Shown here piece after piece: positions 2,925 to 57,199 of a DNA stretch of 64,000 nt; within the stretch, counting starts at the first letter, position 1, and each line of letters opens with the position of its first letter. Both the position numbers and the translations under genes were made by a program. The DNA lies in the IMG/VR virus record IMGVR_UViG_3300045988_043972, positions 1 to 64,000 of that record. One strand, given 5' to 3'. The notes under the pieces are model-generated. The model saw only the letters and a list, made by a program, of their open reading frames with translations, was not told the origin of the DNA and ran no database searches. The stretch is from a virus.

Positions 2925-3481
2925 TCATTCATTGCATTCTGTATATTCTATGGTAACATCTGTTTCATCTAAGGTGGAACCATATTACTTGCTTGCTTTA
3001 TTAATCCTTTTAATTCTGCAACTTGTTCTTGTAATTCTTTTATTCTAGGATCTTCTTGTTTCAAATTTTCCTCCTAATAATCCAACTACTTGAGTATTGC
3101 ATCGCACTTATTCATTTCTTCTTCATACTTAGCTAAAGCCTCCTTCTTTGCTTTGTATTCGTTATAATTATTCTTTACCATTGTTATTATCTGCTGTTTA
3201 TCTGTTGCAATAGTTAAACCTACAGTTCCATCCGTTATGATAGACTTATTTTCTTCTACAGATAATTTCTTCTATTCACCATCACACCCTATTGTTATAT
3301 CAACTAGTTTTTTTCTATTCTAATTTGGTAGAGGAAACTATTGAGGAGGAAGGGGTTCATCATAAACCTTGGATACATTCATTACAGTACCTTTATAATA
3401 AGTAGTACTTTTCTTGAACGTTCCGGTTATCTCTAATACATGTATAGGATCTCCTATATTTAATTGTGCAAATGTTATCAT
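2915..3481 (-). CDS. Coiled-coil late protein, 188 aa (7 TAG)
   Basis: Hand triplet scan from ATG 3481 to TAA 2917-2915 found 7 in-frame TAG and no TAA/TGA. The C-terminal half is K/E/Q-rich and heptad-like. Confidence 0.6.
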
Positions 3482-6746: not shown

Positions 6747-7772
6747 TTAGGTTTTCTTCTTCTTACTTTTTGATATGTATCGCAATAGCTCTTTATGTTT
6801 AGTCATTTTACTAAATAAATTACGACCATTACAGTACTTAATCCAACCTATATAACTACATATTTTCTATTGATAAGTACTCTTGTCTAGGTTATCTTTT
6901 TTGTTCAATTTACTTACTCTTTTACAGAAATTCTTCTTAATATGTTTTCTTAATAGAGTGTGAGTATGAAATATCTTATACCCTACAAAATCTATTCCTC
7001 TATCGTCAACTTTAAATATTTGCCAGTTGTCTTTAAAGTTAATATTAAGTCTTTCTTCTAAGTACTACTTCATATCCTTAAATAACTATCTTAAATAGTC
7101 TTTGTCTCCATGAAGTATTACAATATCATCTGCGTATCTGAAATAGTATTTTATATGTTTTTCTTCTTTGATCCAGTGATCTAGATATGTTAAATATAGA
7201 TTAGCAAAGAATTGTGATAAGTAATTACCAATTGGTACTCCCTATGCAGAATCTATTATTTCATCTAATATAATTAATAATTTCTTATCTTTTACTTTTC
7301 TTCTTATTAGCTATTTTAATATATCATGATCTATTGAAGGATAAAATTTTCTGACATCTAACTTAAGACAGTATTTTGTATTGGCTTCATCTTTCAGTGC
7401 GAACTTAACATCTTTCAGAGCTTTATGTATACCACGATTTTTTATACAACTATAAGTTCCTTTAATGAAGGATGATACCCAAATAGGTTCCATAATATTC
7501 ATAATAGCATGATGTACTATTCTATCTGGATAGTATGGAAGCTTGAATATTTCTCTTTCTTTAGGTTCATATATCTTGAATATATAATATTCAGAAGTCT
7601 TATATTCACCATCTATTAATTTCTTCTATAGATCTAAAAGTAATTTTTCTCTATTCTTATCAAAATTAATTATTTCAGGTCTATGTTGTTTTTGTCTTCT
7701 AGCTCTTTTATCCGCTAGATATAAATTGTCTAAAGTTACTATTTTGTCAAATAAATTATTATATCTTTTCAT
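6747..7772 (-). CDS. DGR-type reverse transcriptase (341 aa, 6 in-frame TAG)
   Basis: Translation gives ..YEPKEREIFKLPYYPDRIVHHA.., SCIKNRGIHKA, LDVRKFYPSIDH, GVPIGNYLSQFFANLYL, YFRYADDIVIL, GIDFVGY. It lies immediately downstream of the TR. Confidence 0.9.
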
Positions 7773-7890
7773 CTGTAATCCATTACCGAGTTTTCACGAA
7801 AAAAGTTACTAACACAGTTAATTAGTATGTTATCTTTTACCAAGGGGTAAGGTCTCCCTCTACAGTCTCTTAATTTCTTTATTTGTTTAA

Positions 7891-44524: not shown

Positions 44525-45309
44525 CTAACAATAAGAGCCGACTTCGAGAAATCTCAGAGCCGGCTGTCTAAACTTATTGCTGTTTTTTATCTATTTATTG
44601 AAGTCTACCATCTTGTGAATTACTTAATCTGTATCTTTTAGGATATCTTTTATATAGAGTATCTTCTTTATATATAATATAATGTATAGTTCCTTTACTG
44701 GATATATTATATTTATTCATTAATTGAGTATATGTAAAACCAGATTCTCTATCTTTTCTTATATTTTCTACTATATCTGCAGAGTATTTTCTACGTATTT
44801 GACCACAATTAATAGATATCAGTTCTTTTGGAATATCGTGTTTATTGTCTTTAATAGTTCCTATTCCTATATTATCGTAAGAATTATCATATCTATCTCC
44901 ATTCAAGTGTCTTACTACTATTCCATCTTCATAAATTTTATCACCAAACTTTTGATATGCTTGTAACCTGTGAATCATACAATGTACCTTCTTATTTTCT
45001 CTTCTAGGTCCTATTCTTATATCGAAATTGTAGTAATCTCTCTTACGATCTTTTATCCTACCTTTTACTTGTACTCCATTTCTGTTTAAAAGAATTCCAT
45101 CTTTTGTGACAGTGTAACCCTTAATAAGGGCTAATTCTTCTGGTTTTATCATACTTCTTTAATTTTTAATTGGTCGGCGTAGTAGGAGTCAAACCCACCC
45201 GGTCGGCTTCAGAGGCCACACGGTTTTAGAGACCGTCCATGCAATCGTACATCATACGCCGAAATGTGCCGGGGAATACTTATTGTCCATCCCCGTTGGA
45301 CGTCTTGTA
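44525..45309 (-). mobile_element. Probable group I-type intron carrying an HNH homing-endonuclease ORF (boundaries approximate)
   Basis: G+C-rich structured segments flank the HNH ORF. Examples: CGGCGTA..TACGCCG long-range pair and ACGGT-CTCTAAA-ACCGT upstream; CAATAAG..CTTATTG enclosing a 12-bp hairpin downstream. The insert ends in G just before TACCCAGAAGG. Confidence 0.5.
44595..45152 (-). CDS. HNH homing endonuclease, 185 aa
   Basis: ..VHCMIHRLQAYQKFG..VVRHLNGDRYDNSYDNIGIGTIKDNKHD.. is an HNH_3-like pattern, followed by a C-terminal helix-turn-helix-like region. No TAG. Confidence 0.8.
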   Translation of the reverse strand: MIKPEELALIKGYTVTKDGILLNRNGVQVKGRIKDRKRDYYNFDIRIGPRRENKKVHCMIHRLQAYQKFGDKIYEDGIVVRHLNGDRYDNSYDNIGIGTIKDNKHDIPKELISINCGQIRRKYSADIVENIRKDRESGFTYTQLMNKYNISSKGTIHYIIYKEDTLYKRYPKRYRLSNSQDGRLQ

Positions 45310-50998: not shown

Positions 50999-51715
50999 AT
51001 GGCACGTTACAAATTAATGAATGTTCAAATTAAGAAAGTTGGACAAAAACCTGACGGTACAATTGACGCAACTATTAATCCAGACGGAAAACGTCGTTTT
51101 ATGACTGCATCATTAATACCAACAGCAGGTGTATGGGCAGCAGCAGCTGGCTCATTACCACCAGTGTTTGATGAAGCAATCATCAGAATGTATGAACCAT
51201 TGTTATCTCAACAGAACGGAGGAACTGCACAAGCAGACCAACCATTACCTGATGAGTTAGCATATCTCAATGGAGCATGGGCTGAATGGATTGCACCTGC
51301 ACCTTTTTACAAGAAATATCTTGTAGGAGTTGCAGCACGTAAACCAACAGCATTAGCACCACAAGGTAGACCAGCTTATCCAGCAGGTCACAGAGTTATG
51401 AATGCAGACGGTTCTGCACCAGTTATTTACACATCTATTCGTGTATTTACCATATTTGGTAGAGACGAAGACTTAGGTAATGAAATAGTTTACCGTCCAG
51501 GTTTTAGTGTAAATGAATTAGGTGTAGCTCAGTTCAGTAATTACTGTGAGTATGTACAACCACAAACTGCGCCAGTAATTGCACCACAGGATGATGTAAT
51601 GGGAGACGCAACAGTTCAGCAACCAGCACAAGCTACTGTACAACCACAAACTGTAGCTCAGCAGCAACCAGCATTCGTACAACAACCTCAGCAACCACAA
51701 GGAGCTATGGTTTAA
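50999..51715 (+). CDS. Hypothetical early protein with Gln/Pro-rich C-terminus, 238 aa
   Basis: Intact ORF, visibly G+C-richer. ..QQPAQATVQPQTVAQQQPAFVQQPQQPQ. Followed by a strong terminator. Confidence 0.75.
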   Translation: MARYKLMNVQIKKVGQKPDGTIDATINPDGKRRFMTASLIPTAGVWAAAAGSLPPVFDEAIIRMYEPLLSQQNGGTAQADQPLPDELAYLNGAWAEWIAPAPFYKKYLVGVAARKPTALAPQGRPAYPAGHRVMNADGSAPVIYTSIRVFTIFGRDEDLGNEIVYRPGFSVNELGVAQFSNYCEYVQPQTAPVIAPQDDVMGDATVQQPAQATVQPQTVAQQQPAFVQQPQQPQGAMV

Positions 51716-51724
51716 TAAAAGATT

Positions 51725-51752
51725 GTCACTCTTCGGAGTGACTTTCTTTTTT
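51725..51752 (+). terminator. Rho-independent terminator
   Basis: GTCACTC-TTCG-GAGTGAC followed by TTTCTTTTTT. Confidence 0.7.
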
Positions 51753-51796: not shown

Positions 51797-51880
51797 ATGG
51801 AATGGTCACAGATACAATTTGCAGGAGGAATAATCATAATATGTATAATTATATACTATTATTTAAAAGAAAAGGAATAA
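51797..51880 (+). CDS. Possible 27-aa hydrophobic micro-protein
   Basis: MEWSQIQFAGGIIIICIIIYYYLKEKE. Below the track's size cut-off. Confidence 0.3.
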   Translation: MEWSQIQFAGGIIIICIIIYYYLKEKE

Positions 51881-52557
51881 CAACTAATATAATTTGATAA
51901 TAAGTTTTAGGTGTAAAATGCAAGAGATTTTCTGAAAAATTAAACTAACAATTACACGGTCTGTGAAGATAGTGTAATTTCACATGTATTATTACTTTAA
52001 TGCAACCAATGAGGGCCGTGACAAGTCGGTGGACAATGCAGAGTCAAAGTAATTAATTATTATTTATCCTTAATTTATATGCACAATAAATTATTGATAT
52101 TTAATAGTTAAATAATCCACGTGGTAGAGACATAGTTAGGTTCGCTATGTGTGCAACTCTTAGTAGTAACTAATCCAAGCAAGTAAGGAGAATAACCTCA
52201 ACCAAGAGAAAGTGTGAAATGGTGCTTGACAGTCTGATACTAACTGAACAATAAGTATCATTTAAAGTAAGAGAATAGCATAGTTATTGCTGCGCATAAC
52301 TGCAAATTATGAGAGCGAATATAATGCGCTTACTTTATTCTTGATTAAATTATAATAATATAATACCTCTCACGTAACCTCCGACTACTACATGTAAAAT
52401 CCGTGCTAATAAGGTATTGTAGTAGTCTTCTCTATCAATAAATACAACCTCATCGTGGTGATAGAGTCTAGTAACATGTTAAAAACAAAACCTTCCTAGT
52501 TTGCATGTGAAGCTAATGTATTTAAATTATTTAACAGTATTAACAAATTAAATATTA
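51881..52557 (+). ncRNA. ORF-free structured block A (candidate large ncRNA; strand inferred from context)
   Basis: No track ORF on either strand. Helices: GACTACTACA/TGTAGTAGTC (52383-92/52418-27), CTCTATCA/TGATAGAG (52430-37/52459-66), AAAGTAAG/CTTACTTT (52264-71/52329-36). Confidence 0.4.
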
Positions 52558-52659
52558 ATGACAACATTTTTCAATTTACTTCTATTTATAGGAGCAATTG
52601 CTGTTGTTTTCCTAGTAATACATGAAGGAATTGAATTATGGAAGGAAATCAACAAATAG
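52558..52659 (+). CDS. Possible 33-aa hydrophobic micro-protein (TAG stop)
   Basis: MTTFFNLLLFIGAIAVVFLVIHEGIELWKEINK. Confidence 0.3.
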   Translation: MTTFFNLLLFIGAIAVVFLVIHEGIELWKEINK

Positions 52660-52951
52660 TATGATAAGAAGGAGTAGTAATATTCTTAATTCAACAAGCA
52701 AGTTATTAGTAGTAATGGTAACTATAGTAGTTATTATTTATATACTAAAGAACTGGGAGCCTAAAGATCCATATGGTTTTGTGGATTTGCAAATGAGGTT
52801 TAAACATTATGTAGTATCTGATAAATATCAAGAAGATGAAGATACATATGTAATACGTTTAGTAAATCCTGTTACTGGAAATGAATACAAAGCATATATT
52901 GCAGATTATTTATATATGAATGTATACTTTGTAGGTGATACTATTAAATAA
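52622..52951 (+). CDS. Single-TM protein (109 aa; ATG 52661 is an alternative start)
   Basis: Track ORF with TM segment LLVVMVTIVVIIYIL. Confidence 0.55.
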   Translation: MKELNYGRKSTNSMIRRSSNILNSTSKLLVVMVTIVVIIYILKNWEPKDPYGFVDLQMRFKHYVVSDKYQEDEDTYVIRLVNPVTGNEYKAYIADYLYMNVYFVGDTIK

Positions 52952-52958
52952 TTATTAA

Positions 52959-52977
52959 TTTTAAAAACATTATCAAA
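52959..52977 (+). promoter_or_regulatory. Conserved leader motif copy 1 (TTTAAAAACATTATCAAA-ATG)
   Basis: ttttaaaaacattatcaaa abuts ATG 52978. The core AAACATTATCAAAA is also at 55968-55981 and 59651-59664. Confidence 0.45.
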
Positions 52978-53163
52978 ATGGGAAAAAAAAGATCTGCTAC
53001 AGTCCATACAGTGGACGGAGAAGAGTTAACATTCACATCGGTATCATTAGATTACTGCTGTGGAAATAGTAACGGAAGTTTAGTATCAATATGCGGTGAG
53101 AAGTTCGATATCATCGAGACTCCGTCCGTAGTATCTGAACTACTAGATGAACTGGAGGATTGA
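52978..53163 (+). CDS. Hypothetical protein, 61 aa
   Basis: Track ORF. Starts MGKK directly after the leader motif. Confidence 0.6.
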   Translation: MGKKRSATVHTVDGEELTFTSVSLDYCCGNSNGSLVSICGEKFDIIETPSVVSELLDELED

Positions 53164-53618
53164 GTATGGAAGATAATCAATATCCTGTAGTAAAAAAATC
53201 GTCTAATGGATGCTTTTGGACGATATTAGTAGTCATTGCATTAGCAATCGCTACTGGAGTAATAGTGTTTCTGTGTCATGAGCCTATTGCTAAGATTGTT
53301 ACGTCGGAAGACGAATCAGTTTGCATTGATACTGCAAAAGCAGTTGAACATGTACCAACGGTACAAGAAATTCTCAAATTTAGAGAAGACGTAAAAGAGG
53401 GAATGCGCATTGATAGTATATTTTTAGCAATGCCTGAAGCTGTTTTGATTGATATACTTATGACTCATGGTACATCATTGTCGAACAGCGACATTGTTTA
53501 TATATATGAATCAAACAAAGAGCATTTTAAAGATGTATTAAAAGGCGCAGTTATTCAACGCGATATAATTACCCCAATGGATTCTGTGAAGAATCCTCGT
53601 GATTCTCTAAGGCGTTAG
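53160..53618 (+). CDS. Single-TM protein, 152 aa (stops at TAG)
   Basis: Track ORF. The stop is TAG 53616-53618. Confidence 0.65.
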   Translation: MSMEDNQYPVVKKSSNGCFWTILVVIALAIATGVIVFLCHEPIAKIVTSEDESVCIDTAKAVEHVPTVQEILKFREDVKEGMRIDSIFLAMPEAVLIDILMTHGTSLSNSDIVYIYESNKEHFKDVLKGAVIQRDIITPMDSVKNPRDSLRR

Positions 53619-54101
53619 AGAGTAATAATTAACAACAATTTATTACAGTTTTTTGAAGCATTTTGCATAATAGAAATGGTTTAAAAATTTCGACTTAATA
53701 ACTAGTCAGTTCGTGAGAATAGACTAGTCTTCAGAAGATGACAAGCCTGTGGGGCGTAAATAGATATGTCTTGTCAAAAGAATTAGGCCTACATAATTCA
53801 ATTGAGCCCAAGGTGTAGGAACATATCTATGATCGTGCGGACGTTAAAATCAGGTGAGTTCTAAGATTTAGTTTGACAGCTATTTCTGTATGTACTCTGG
53901 AGTAATCCTAAAACATATGAGGGTTTAAATTAACATAGTAATATGTGTGAAGGTGATTTCTTTAATAACAGATGTACAATAGAGCGCTATTGTTTTATAG
54001 TATTAGTCGCGAACCCGTAGCACTGCGGTAAATTATTCTGTATATAGTGCTGTATACAGACGTCATCAATTTTACTAACAATTAAAACTTAAGCTTATGT
54101 A
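53619..54101 (+). ncRNA. ORF-free structured block B (candidate ncRNA)
   Basis: No track ORF. Helices: ACTAGTC/GACTAGT (53701-07/53722-28); ATAGATATGT/ACATATCTAT (53760-69/53821-30) enclosing CCTACA/TGTAGG; ACAATAG-agcg-CTATTGT near 53976-93. Confidence 0.4.
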
Positions 54102-54359
54102 ATGAAAACAAAAAAATCGGAATCCAAAAGGCAAATTACCAGTATAATATTGCATACTGGACATTTGTATGCTAACATTTTAGCATTAAATAAAATACTA
54201 GGTATACCTTTTAGTGAAGCTAGAAGATTAGCTAGAAGTAAACCAAGTGAAGAAATTCATCTATGTCCATACTTAGATCTTAATTCAAATATGTCTACTG
54301 ATGATATTAAGAATGAATTAGATGAGTATGAAATAGAAATAAAAATAATTAATCAATAA
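54102..54359 (+). CDS. Hypothetical protein, 85 aa
   Basis: Track ORF. Confidence 0.6.
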   Translation: MKTKKSESKRQITSIILHTGHLYANILALNKILGIPFSEARRLARSKPSEEIHLCPYLDLNSNMSTDDIKNELDEYEIEIKIINQ

Positions 54360-55464: not shown

Positions 55465-55501
55465 TTAAATTGTTAGTATGGTGGATTCCAATCAACCCGA
55501 A

Positions 55502-55647
55502 AGAACTGTAAATATACCAAAACCCTAATACATATTATTATGTAATGGCTATTCAACGGCAATCTGTAAATCTACAGATAAAGGGAGAGAAGGATAGGGG
55601 TTATCTGTAGAATAAGAGATAGGAATATACAGAACAGTTCTTTTTTT
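55502..55647 (+). ncRNA. Small structured RNA or terminator-capped element
   Basis: AGAACTGT/ACAGTTCT (55502-09/55634-41) closes the element and is followed by T7. An inner 11-bp hairpin TCTACAGATAA/TTATCTGTAGA (55571-81/55601-11) has a purine-rich loop. Confidence 0.4.
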
Positions 55648-56448: not shown

Positions 56449-56820
56449 TTCTCCGCGCATAGTCCAGGTATAGTGTTTTAGCAGTAGAAAATACTGACTA
56501 TATAACCTAACTAGAGAAAGTAGCTAATAGGTGGTGATGACATTTTATGTGCTAAGTACCAGAAGATGCAGCTCATGCGTGAATTAACACGCATACAACA
56601 AGTGTAAGGCGTAGAAATACGACCGATGCCAGAGTAGGACAATATGACAACGTGCCACTGATCATGTGCCTAAGATCGTGAGGATGTATTAATAAATTGC
56701 GCAATATATAAATACAGATTCTATACTCAATGAGTATATTATGCAATAGCATTCTTATGATATCAAATCGGCATATTGGAATAGTGCGATGCTAGACATC
56801 ATGCCGTATAGAGGCTGAAA
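56449..56820 (+). ncRNA. ORF-free structured block C, 5' part
   Basis: No credible ORF, and it contains short inverted repeats. Shares the 11-mer CCAGAGTAGGA with block D (near 63124). Confidence 0.35.
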
Positions 56821-57199
56821 GGTATTCTATACTTCCAAGACAAGTTATCAAGGCATTAGAAAATAATTTAAAAAAGACCAAAGACTATGTAGGTTTGGTC
56901 GCCTACATAGTCACAATTGACTGTTAGGTCTATTTAAGCCCGAGCAAGACGAGCTTTCGCAGGCTCCACCTCCACTAATAAAGAAATATTAAAAAGGGGG
57001 TGTATATGTATTGATTGGCGGAAACTAAGTAGAATAGGTCAATAAGCAGATAACTGGCAATACAAGTTATGTAACAGACTATACACGTTTAGTAGCGTAA
57101 GATAGTCTAACGGCTAAGCTAATGTCGTAGAAAGCTGGAGGTATATCAGGCTAGATCAGACGTAAGGGCTGTTGGAGGGTTCGATTCCCTCTAATACCA
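56821..57199 (+). ncRNA. About 380-nt RNA whose ends form a tRNA-like acceptor/T-arm domain (tmRNA-like topology, not a canonical tRNA or tmRNA)
   Basis: T-arm GAGGG-TTCGATT-CCCTC (57175-91). TAATACC (57192-98) pairs with GGTATTC (56821-27), 6 of 7. TATACTTCCA (56828-37) pairs with TGGAGGTATA (57136-45), 10 bp including one G-U. Confidence 0.5.

Follow-up and report, generated by a model that had tools for sequence, protein, structure and literature searches.

The 64,000 nucleotide (nt) window analyzed here represents bases 1–64000 of a 101,227 base pair (bp) virus record (IMG/VR record IMGVR_UViG_3300045988_043972), and the record bears terminal repeats. Sequence comparison shows that the crAss-like phage genomes cr113_1, cr109_1 and cr60_1 are 93–94% identical to the window, which on this basis is assigned to a crAss-like phage (Crassvirales, Suoliviridae, Loutivirinae, Buchavirus). 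The GC skew flips at ~50 kb, and a module of small plus-strand genes starts there. Two blocks without open reading frames (ORFs) are found in this module, block A (positions 51881–52557) and block B (positions 53619–54101), and both contain putative self-cleaving ribozymes. The order of elements in block A is a GUGA-capped hairpin, a twister ribozyme, a RAGATH-7 RNA, a variable stem domain, a 10-bp hairpin and a ribozyme resembling that of hepatitis delta virus (HDV-like). In block B a P0 hairpin precedes a hatchet ribozyme, after which come a conserved 3' element, a hairpin with the word CGUCAUCA behind it, and the leader of the next gene. All of these elements are on the plus strand, as are all other positions given below unless noted. 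Relatives were gathered from RefSeq crAss-like genomes and from IMG/VR via exact words.

The original prediction, made from the letters of the window, described the blocks as free of ORFs, dense in helices and alternating with gene clusters, and this description is borne out. Block A is touched only by frames of at most 35 amino acids (aa), i.e., the last 17 nt of ORF 51802–51897 and two minus-strand ORFs of 33 and 35 aa, and there are no ORFs of 30 aa or more within block B. Small orphan genes are interleaved with the blocks; a Pfam and PHROGs search with eight interleaved proteins gave no informative family. The named helices are all present, at or a few bases from the positions first given. 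Block A has a 10-bp helix (GACTACTACA at 52383–52392 with TGTAGTAGTC at 52418–52427) and two 8-bp helices (AATTACAC at 51950–51957 with GTGTAATT at 51972–51979, and AAAGTAAG at 52264–52271 with CTTACTTT at 52329–52336). Block B has a 10-bp helix (ATAGATATGT at 53760–53769 with ACATATCTAT at 53821–53830), a nested 6-bp stem (CCTACA at 53788 with TGTAGG at 53814) and a 7-bp helix (ACTAGTC at 53701–53707 with GACTAGT at 53722–53728). There are 13 perfect inverted repeats of at least 7 bp in block A compared with 4.1 ± 2.1 in dinucleotide shuffles, a number that none of 300 shuffles reaches, and 7 of at least 8 bp compared with 1.2. Block B has 6 of at least 7 bp compared with 2.3, and 5 of 300 shuffles reach this. 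The folding energies were not matched by shuffled sequences as a rule: the minimum free energy (MFE) z-score is -3.0 for block A (0 of 20 shuffles equally stable) and, more weakly, -2.24 for block B (2 of 100 shuffles equally stable). Since the folding energy of block B alone is weak, the decisive evidence is provided by covariance-model matches and by conservation in relatives, where the blocks are kept. Thus the proposal that the blocks represent structured non-coding RNA stands; the structure is dense, specific to the transcribed strand, and conserved.

A second part of the prediction, that the blocks form one family of regulatory or anti-defence RNAs, does not hold. Each Rfam family, and also our own HDV-like model, matches the 101-kb genome only once, and a single RNA family for A and B is therefore rejected. 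The two blocks are not alignable to each other and have only a GUGA-capped hairpin of ~30 nt in common. Most of the long helices instead belong to self-cleaving ribozymes or to the hairpins that closely precede the cut sites, and they represent catalogued processing elements (hatchet, twister, HDV-like and RAGATH-7).

The hatchet ribozyme of block B belongs to a class reportedly described by Weinberg et al. in 2015. It is located at positions 53727–53855 and matches Rfam RF02678 over the full model (positions 1–133 of 133) with 92.5 bits (E = 3.7e-18) against a gathering score of 51. Cleavage is predicted between C53729 and U53730. The conserved core is present, with UC|UUCA, CAA, CUGUGGGGCGU and UCGUGCGGACGUUAAAAUCAGG, and there is a single A-to-G difference that is common to 20 of the 33 natural copies examined. 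The same core (CUGUGGGGCGU ... CGUGCGGACGUUAAAAUCAGG) is found in the described hatchets, as is the C at -1, which is the nucleophile-bearing residue (PMC4604424). P1 is short (UCA/UGA), with 3 bp as in construct Ht-2 (PMC4604424). The 10-bp helix with its nested 6-bp stem forms a long distal stem-loop within the match. In all eight RefSeq relatives fetched, a hatchet is found at the same site after the homologous gene (an Rfam scan covers six of them, and a sequence motif identifies the hatchets of cr53_1 and cr115_1). As of 2015, hatchets were not known from any completely sequenced genome; here one is present in a complete crAss-like phage genome.

The 7-bp helix of block B represents the P0 hairpin of the hatchet (positions 53701–53728, ACUAGUC-AG-UUC-GUGA-GAA-UA-GACUAGU), which ends 1 nt before the predicted cut. 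P0 has been described for ~90% of hatchets (Li et al. 2015, PMC4604424) and was reported without sequence conservation, whereas in these phages its apex is conserved (G.U, YYY-GNRA-RRR-UA). The region between the upstream gene and P0 (53619–53700) is either a 3' untranslated region or a 22-codon TAG read-through tail of ORF 53160–53618. This ORF ends in TAG at 53616–53618, and the RefSeq coding sequences of cr113_1, cr60_1 and cr109_1 read through it to a TAA at the position equivalent to 53684. The DNA at 53619–53684 is identical in the three relatives and thus carries no information on read-through, and block B may start 66 nt later.

In contrast to the known hatchets, the phage ribozyme is accompanied by a conserved 3' element and by a downstream copy of its substrate word. 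The 3' element (53856–53905) consists of UAAGAUUUAGUUUGACAGCUAUUUCUG within a short outer stem, GAGU/ACUC. In other lineages the outer stem is ACUC/GAGU, ACAC/GUGU or CGUU/AACG, and this covariation is only suggestive; the RNAalifold consensus is weak because the MAFFT alignment is out of register. Further downstream is a hairpin, UCUGUAUA-UAGUGCUG-UAUACAGA (54037–54060), whose stems covary across lineages. It is followed by the conserved 8-mer CGUCAUCA (CGUC AUCA, 54061–54068) and by an A/U-rich leader (54069–54101) up to the ATG at 54102. Of 24 distinct hatchets, 21 have the 8-mer, as CGUC(N)U(C/U)A, within +100 to +300 nt, compared with 0.02 occurrences expected per 200 nt, and it is always preceded by the covarying hairpin. 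It fits the substrate word of the hatchet, UC|NUCA; loci L020 and L026 belong to a phage in which the hatchet's own site and the downstream site are both CGUCGUCA. Both blocks close with an A/U-rich leader (52528–52557 and 54069–54101) in which UAACA words immediately precede the start codon. Distant relatives have UUAUUAACUAACAAUUU as the leader that follows the CGUCGUCA word.

The twister ribozyme of block A is of type P1 and is located at positions 51992–52052. The class is said to have been described by Roth et al. in 2014. Stem P1 is formed by 51992–51998 and 52046–52052 and P2 by UGCA/UGCA, and P3 and P5 are absent; optional P3 or P5 stems are seen in some relatives. There are two pseudoknots, T1 (AC:GU) and T2 (GAC:GUC). 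The cut is predicted between U51998 and A51999, a position taken from what is known of the family. In an alignment of 20 distinct sequences, restricted to core columns with variable inserts trimmed, 93.7% of the cells are paired and 12 of 19 pairs show compensatory changes. None of 500 shuffles reaches the observed pairing, and slid controls give 31–46%. T1 and T2 are 100% paired, both with compensatory changes: T1 is AC:GU in 10 sequences and GC:GC in 10, and T2 is GAC:GUC, UAC:GUA or GGC:GUC. The UAA at the cut site and the P4 loop GUNNCAAGNC are invariant in the 20 sequences. The element has in common with type-P1 twister ribozymes (Rfam RF03160, clan CL00120) the P1-P2-P4 architecture, the UAA cut site, a CAAG-containing P4 loop and the two pseudoknots at canonical places. 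It differs in the lack of P3 and in a score of 28 bits against a cut-off of 67, and it has GAC:GUC in place of the consensus CCC:GGG, a compensatory change, and AC:GU in place of GC:GC. By comparative evidence it is a genuine member of the class, with predicted catalysis.

Directly at the 3' end of the twister is a RAGATH-7 RNA (Rfam RF03159, positions 52051–52260). The match is full length (model positions 1–208), with 166.2 bits and E = 2.4e-38 against a gathering score of 111.8, and the scores in relatives are 159–169 bits. The direct adjacency of a twister to RAGATH-7 holds across genera and is seen in 24 of 29 loci, of which 27 are evaluable; the RAGATH-7 neighbourhood has the twister at the 5' end and a HDV-like or hatchet ribozyme downstream. 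The RAGATH motifs owe their discovery to their location near self-cleaving ribozymes (Weinberg et al. 2017, PMC5737381), and metagenomes are known to contain islands in which ribozymes and RAGATH motifs occur together (PMC5737381). The phage RNA is the same as the RAGATH-7 of that motif set in its full-length, high-scoring match and in its proximity to self-cleaving ribozymes. What differs is that here the flanks are resolved, with a twister fused 5' and a 5'-cutting ribozyme (HDV-like or hatchet) downstream, and that the whole unit behaves as a presence/absence cassette. Following RAGATH-7 is a variable domain, termed X (52264–52336), which is closed by the arms AAAGUAAG / CUUACUUU according to the MFE structure and an alignment of 11 relatives. 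Its interior is ~57 nt here and far longer in relatives, and the arms are conserved; the arms are invariant across the 11 relatives, and their pairing is a prediction.

The HDV-like ribozyme is at positions 52430–52527, preceded by a 10-bp hairpin (52383–52427) with a 25-nt loop that ends 2 nt upstream of its cut and is kept in relatives. Stem P1 is formed by 52430–52436 and 52460–52466, and the P2 pseudoknot by 52440–52446 and 52517–52523. P3 is ACC/GGU, L3 is UCAUCGU, P4 is long, and J4/2 is GCUAA (52512–52516), in which C52513 is the candidate catalytic C. The cut is predicted between U52429 and C52430 (± 1 nt). Our own covariance model, R1, which was built without the P2 pseudoknot, gives 109.9 bits at this locus and 47 matches, of which 30 are distinct. 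In the alignment of these 30 sequences 97.4% of the cells are paired and 17 of 24 pairs show compensatory changes. For the P2 pseudoknot, which the search model lacked, pairing is 94% and 4 positions are compensatory. The nested double pseudoknot (P1, P2, P3 and P4) is thus supported by covariation. J4/2 is conserved as GCUAA, or as ACUAA in a second lineage, and its C is present in nearly all matches (one reads ACCAA). The core ACCUCAUCGUGGUGA is also conserved. By these comparisons the element is a genuine member of the class, with cleavage predicted. A pairing of CUAG with CUAG between J1/4 and the P4 loop shows no compensatory change and three breaks, and is not supported; a possible CCAG/CUGG change was seen by eye in L004, a locus that is not in the J1/4-P4 alignment. 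An A/U-rich leader with UUAACA repeats (52528–52557) extends from the ribozyme to the ATG at 52558.

The F. prausnitzii HDV-like ribozyme (RF02682) has the same nested double-pseudoknot fold, the GCUAA in J4/2 and an L3/P3 core consensus to which ACCUCAUCGUGGUGA is close; the phage copy differs in its 45-nt P4 region and in starting with C. Theta ribozymes, which are HDV-like, define in gut phages the 3' ends of transfer RNAs (tRNAs) (Kienbeck et al. 2024, PMC10879173). The element described here is likewise from a gut phage, and its predicted cut at its own 5' end would set the 3' end of an upstream structured RNA. Unlike theta ribozymes it is not minimal, as P4 is present, and it has no adjoining tRNA; the upstream partner is a plain hairpin that closes the RAGATH-7-bearing RNA. 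ARAGORN shows no tRNA at the HDV-like locus, and the sole tRNA of the window is at 45171–45261 on the other strand. In a second phage lineage (loci L055, L050, L066 and others, on IMG/VR contigs of 54–200 kb) a GUGA hairpin, a hatchet and a HDV-like ribozyme occur together. The hatchets of this lineage also carry the downstream CGUCAUCA word, and the HDV-like copies have a hairpin of ~50 nt inserted in the L3/P3 region.

The predicted cut sites of the three ribozyme classes have a common feature, in that a stable hairpin ends 0–3 nt ahead of the HDV-like and hatchet cuts and ~19 nt ahead of the twister cut. The hairpin before the twister (51950–51979, AAUUACAC-GG-UCU-GUGA-AGA-UA-GUGUAAUU) ends 19 nt before the cut; its lower stem has 8 bp and its upper stem 3 bp, and it further has a G.U wobble and a GNRA tetraloop. 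It represents the same motif as the hatchet P0 and is the piece that blocks A and B have in common. The motif has a covarying stem of 7–9 bp, one mismatch, a near-invariant G.U, three Y:R pairs and a GNRA (mostly GUGA) loop. In 23 distinct relatives 9 of 11 pairs show compensatory changes, the G.U is present in 22 of 23, and the G, G and A of the GNRA loop are invariant. The 13-nt loop pattern has only three matches in the window, two of them in these blocks, and the two copies of the motif on the plus strand of the window are both located here. In a sequence-only control over 1.39 Mb of collected loci, the pattern has 48 matches, and 28 of them bear the full hairpin. The motif precedes hatchets in most lineages, where it typically ends 1–4 nt before the cut, and twisters in this lineage. 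For the HDV-like ribozymes, 29 of 33 distinct copies have a hairpin of -8 kcal/mol or lower ending within 4 nt of the cut, often GUGA-capped, compared with a baseline of 11% for random 50-mers from the same loci. The known hatchets differ in this respect; here the same P0 hairpin is also found before twisters, and GUGA-capped hairpins before HDV-like ribozymes. P0 is not critical for hatchet catalysis (Li et al., PMC4604424), and the hairpin is common to three unrelated catalytic folds, which argues that it serves the product. Its most likely role would be to cap the new 3' end and to shield the ribozyme from upstream sequence.

Comparison of relatives reveals that block A behaves as an exchangeable unit. 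Block B is core, with a hatchet in all eight RefSeq relatives examined, whereas block A is mosaic. In cr60_1 and cr56_1 the block A unit is as in this phage. In cr113_1 the hairpin, twister and HDV-like ribozyme are kept but with a different cargo of 237 nt, and in cr113_1 and cr52_1 the position of the 10-bp hairpin is occupied by a non-homologous hairpin (GAGAAGGGUCUUG.CAAGACUCUUCUC). The genome cr109_1 lacks everything from P0 through the HDV-like ribozyme; its flanks join just before the next start codon, and a similar A/U-rich leader follows directly. A little upstream of this point cr109_1 has an insert of ~97 nt (L003, ~3135–3235) that contains CCCAAGACAUUGAGGGCACCAGUUUCUU; this sequence is also found upstream of RAGATH-7 in locus L033 and may be another small conserved element. 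In cr4_1 (L006, 2378–3667 and 8586–8875) there is a twister, a RAGATH-7, two tandem hatchets and then a HDV-like ribozyme. The cr4_1 HDV-like element, in which the P2 3' strand is unpaired, ends exactly at the start of a tRNA-Leu, and a group I intron is present further on. The occurrence of the unit as present, swapped or absent, together with the twister–RAGATH-7 adjacency, marks it as a ribozyme-bracketed, exchangeable RNA cargo.

These properties lead us to propose, with a probability of about 0.72, that blocks A and B are RNA-processing islands in one long plus-strand early-gene transcript that is cut by its own ribozymes. The transcript would start after a terminator at ~51750, and the ribozymes would cut the nascent RNA at U51998|A51999, U52429|C52430 and C53729|U53730. 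The twister cut would release a segment with the micro-ORF, at the end of which are a hairpin and a cyclic phosphate. A second product would be an RNA of ~430 nt with the twister and RAGATH-7, closed by the 10-bp hairpin. The third would be the mRNA of ORFs 52558–53618, with the HDV-like fold at its start and P0 at its end, and the fourth the mRNA of the ORFs from 54102 on, with the hatchet at its start. The upstream pieces would thus gain hairpin-capped 3' ends with a 2',3'-cyclic phosphate and the downstream pieces structured 5'-hydroxyl ends, and the hairpins before the cuts would insulate ribozyme folding from upstream mRNA and protect the new 3' ends. Self-cleavage of this kind is what defines the three ribozyme classes. 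The proposed cutting resembles what theta ribozymes have been proposed to do at the 3' ends of phage tRNAs (PMC10879173). If correct, the blocks are a natural counterpart of the ribozyme insulators of synthetic biology. In RiboJ a ribozyme with a hairpin uncouples a cistron from the sequence upstream of it, and in twister-flanked "Tornado" cassettes two ribozymes release an RNA with 5'-hydroxyl and 2',3'-cyclic-phosphate ends. The phage arrangement is natural, and its hairpin is upstream of the cut and not downstream.

Several points weigh against this proposal. The Rfam twister-P1 match (51994–52049) has 28.2 bits, below the gathering score of 67.2; relatives score 27.9–42.8 bits. The HDV-F-prausnitzii match (52430–52523) has 24.2 bits, below the cut-off of 44, because a P4 insert of 45 nt in place of 21 nt costs score. 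The HDV-like ribozyme has C52430 at +1, paired with G, and not a G. As its start is C and not G1 (often in a G.U pair), both its activity and the exact cut site are uncertain; the second lineage reads U-G-C..., which would permit a G.U one nucleotide further in. The relatives share phylogeny, so that the shuffle tests overstate independence, and the P0 alignment owes its 100% pairing in part to a search that required stems. Separate transcripts may also initiate from promoters within the blocks. The stabilizing and insulating role would also be that of a hairpin that is not critical for hatchet catalysis (PMC4604424).

A different outcome of the same cuts would be that both blocks are self-excising cassettes, cleaved at both ends to release a discrete RNA. 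In block A the twister and HDV-like cuts may free the segment ~51999–52429 (about 430 nt). In block B the downstream CGUC|AUCA at 54064|54065 would have to be a second substrate of the same hatchet, and an RNA of ~335 nt bearing the hatchet may then be released, with the next mRNA left with a leader of ~37 nt. The possibility is retained because the 8-mer matches UC|NUCA, is preceded by a covarying hairpin, accompanies 21 of 24 hatchets and is identical to the cleavage site where both are CGUCGUCA, and because hatchets function as split substrate/enzyme constructs (PMC4604424). Cleavage at this second site is nevertheless quite doubtful, and self-excision of both blocks is judged to be similarly improbable. 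The 5'-hydroxyl and 2',3'-cyclic-phosphate ends are substrates of RtcB-type ligases, and a circular RNA is therefore possible.

The blocks could also encode trans-acting regulatory or anti-defence RNAs (decoys, sponges or guides), with RAGATH-7 and the RNA downstream of the hatchet as the products and the ribozymes merely trimming them. RAGATH-7 (166 bits) is large, has many stems and is highly conserved. Its cassette is accessory, and close relatives may have it, lack it or carry a swapped version, a pattern typical of counter-defence cargo; the genes around the blocks are small orphans without family matches, and one RAGATH family, RAGATH-18, is reported to give guide RNAs for IS607 TnpB (PMC11061315). 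However, no target, partner protein or link to defence was found, the noted helices are mostly parts of ribozymes and P0 hairpins and not of a common RNA family, and apart from the ~30-nt hairpin the blocks have no alignable domain in common. Such a function, which is unlikely as the explanation of the blocks, is compatible with RNA processing and not opposed to it. A role at the level of DNA, with promoters, an origin or protein-binding inverted repeats and with RNA folds that are incidental, would fit the intergenic, A/T-rich character of the blocks, the TTAACA-type repeats at their 3' ends just before start codons and the conserved TTTGACAGC word after the hatchet. It is highly improbable in view of the covariation, which maintains RNA pairs including G.U wobbles that are A.C mismatches on the other strand, and which extends to the pseudoknots. 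The Rfam matches are also specific to the gene strand, and sigma-70-like promoter matches are not enriched (14 compared with 16.4 expected).

The window has a TAG-suppressor tRNA (45171–45261, minus strand, anticodon CUA, labelled tRNA-Pyl by ARAGORN), which made it worthwhile to ask whether the blocks hide coding sequence in an alternative code with TAG read as Gln; the RefSeq annotations of relatives that read through TAG 53616–53618 also point in this direction. With TAG as Gln, however, there is no plus-strand ORF longer than 56 aa in either block. The best frame, 65 aa on the minus strand with four TAGs, is not credible, and the only gain is the 22-codon extension of the upstream gene (53619–53684). 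As covariance-model matches occupy what remains of the blocks, hidden coding has next to no likelihood and is rejected; no gene is opened. Processing of a long transcript is the preferred explanation of the two blocks.

The hatchet and RAGATH-7 described here are ordinary representatives of families already catalogued. By structure the twister and HDV-like ribozymes are members too, but they are below Rfam thresholds and represent new sequence-level variants. What is new is modest: the order of parts, the cassette polymorphism, the rule, common to three ribozyme classes, that a hairpin is placed at the cut site, the conserved P0 apex and the downstream substrate-like word. A literature search of incomplete coverage revealed no paper that places hatchet or RAGATH RNAs in crAss-like phages, and a full-text search for "RAGATH-7" gave no match. 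Hatchet and RAGATH RNAs were defined from anonymous metagenome scaffolds, and here they are found in a complete phage genome with resolved neighbours. This context suggests a role for them, i.e., dividing a polycistronic early transcript into pieces whose ends are defined and hairpin-capped. The cut-site hairpin common to three unrelated ribozyme classes argues for a role in the RNA product and not in catalysis. A cassette that is present, swapped or absent in phages more than 90% identical also provides comparative material on its cost or benefit.

Upstream of block A, a terminator-like hairpin with a T-run (GTCACTCTTCGGAGTGAC + TTTCTTTTTT, 51725–51752) is located downstream of ORF 50999–51715 and is the probable end of the preceding transcription unit. 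There are 4 terminator-like sites in the region compared with 0.7 expected, and none inside block A or block B. Between the hairpin and block A is a hydrophobic micro-ORF of 31 aa (51802–51897), which is kept in cr109_1.

Covariance-model scans place all ribozymes and RAGATH RNAs of the 101-kb genome within 51.9–57.1 kb on the gene strand. In the rest of the genome outside the window, no further ribozyme or RAGATH match was found; the scan gave one short tRNA-like match of only 58 nt (G000 66972–67029, plus strand, 46.4 bits) and a weak match to our HDV-like model (G000 84485–84559, minus strand, 23.9 bits, E = 0.019). An Rfam scan of both blocks at permissive E-values gave nothing credible beyond the twister and HDV-like ribozymes, and matches to small nucleolar RNAs, microRNAs and internal ribosome entry sites (E 0.15–6) are considered noise. 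The next two ORF-free blocks contain RAGATH-9 (129.7 bits), RAGATH-20 (121.5 bits) and a permuted transfer-messenger RNA that is below threshold (34.4 bits), at positions 55488–55644, 56576–56677 and 56916–57100. There is no obvious P0-like hairpin, a possible hint of cleavage, ahead of RAGATH-9 or RAGATH-20. Elsewhere in the window an RT-17 RNA motif is present on the minus strand at 7766–7854, with 40.8 bits against a gathering score of 40.4.

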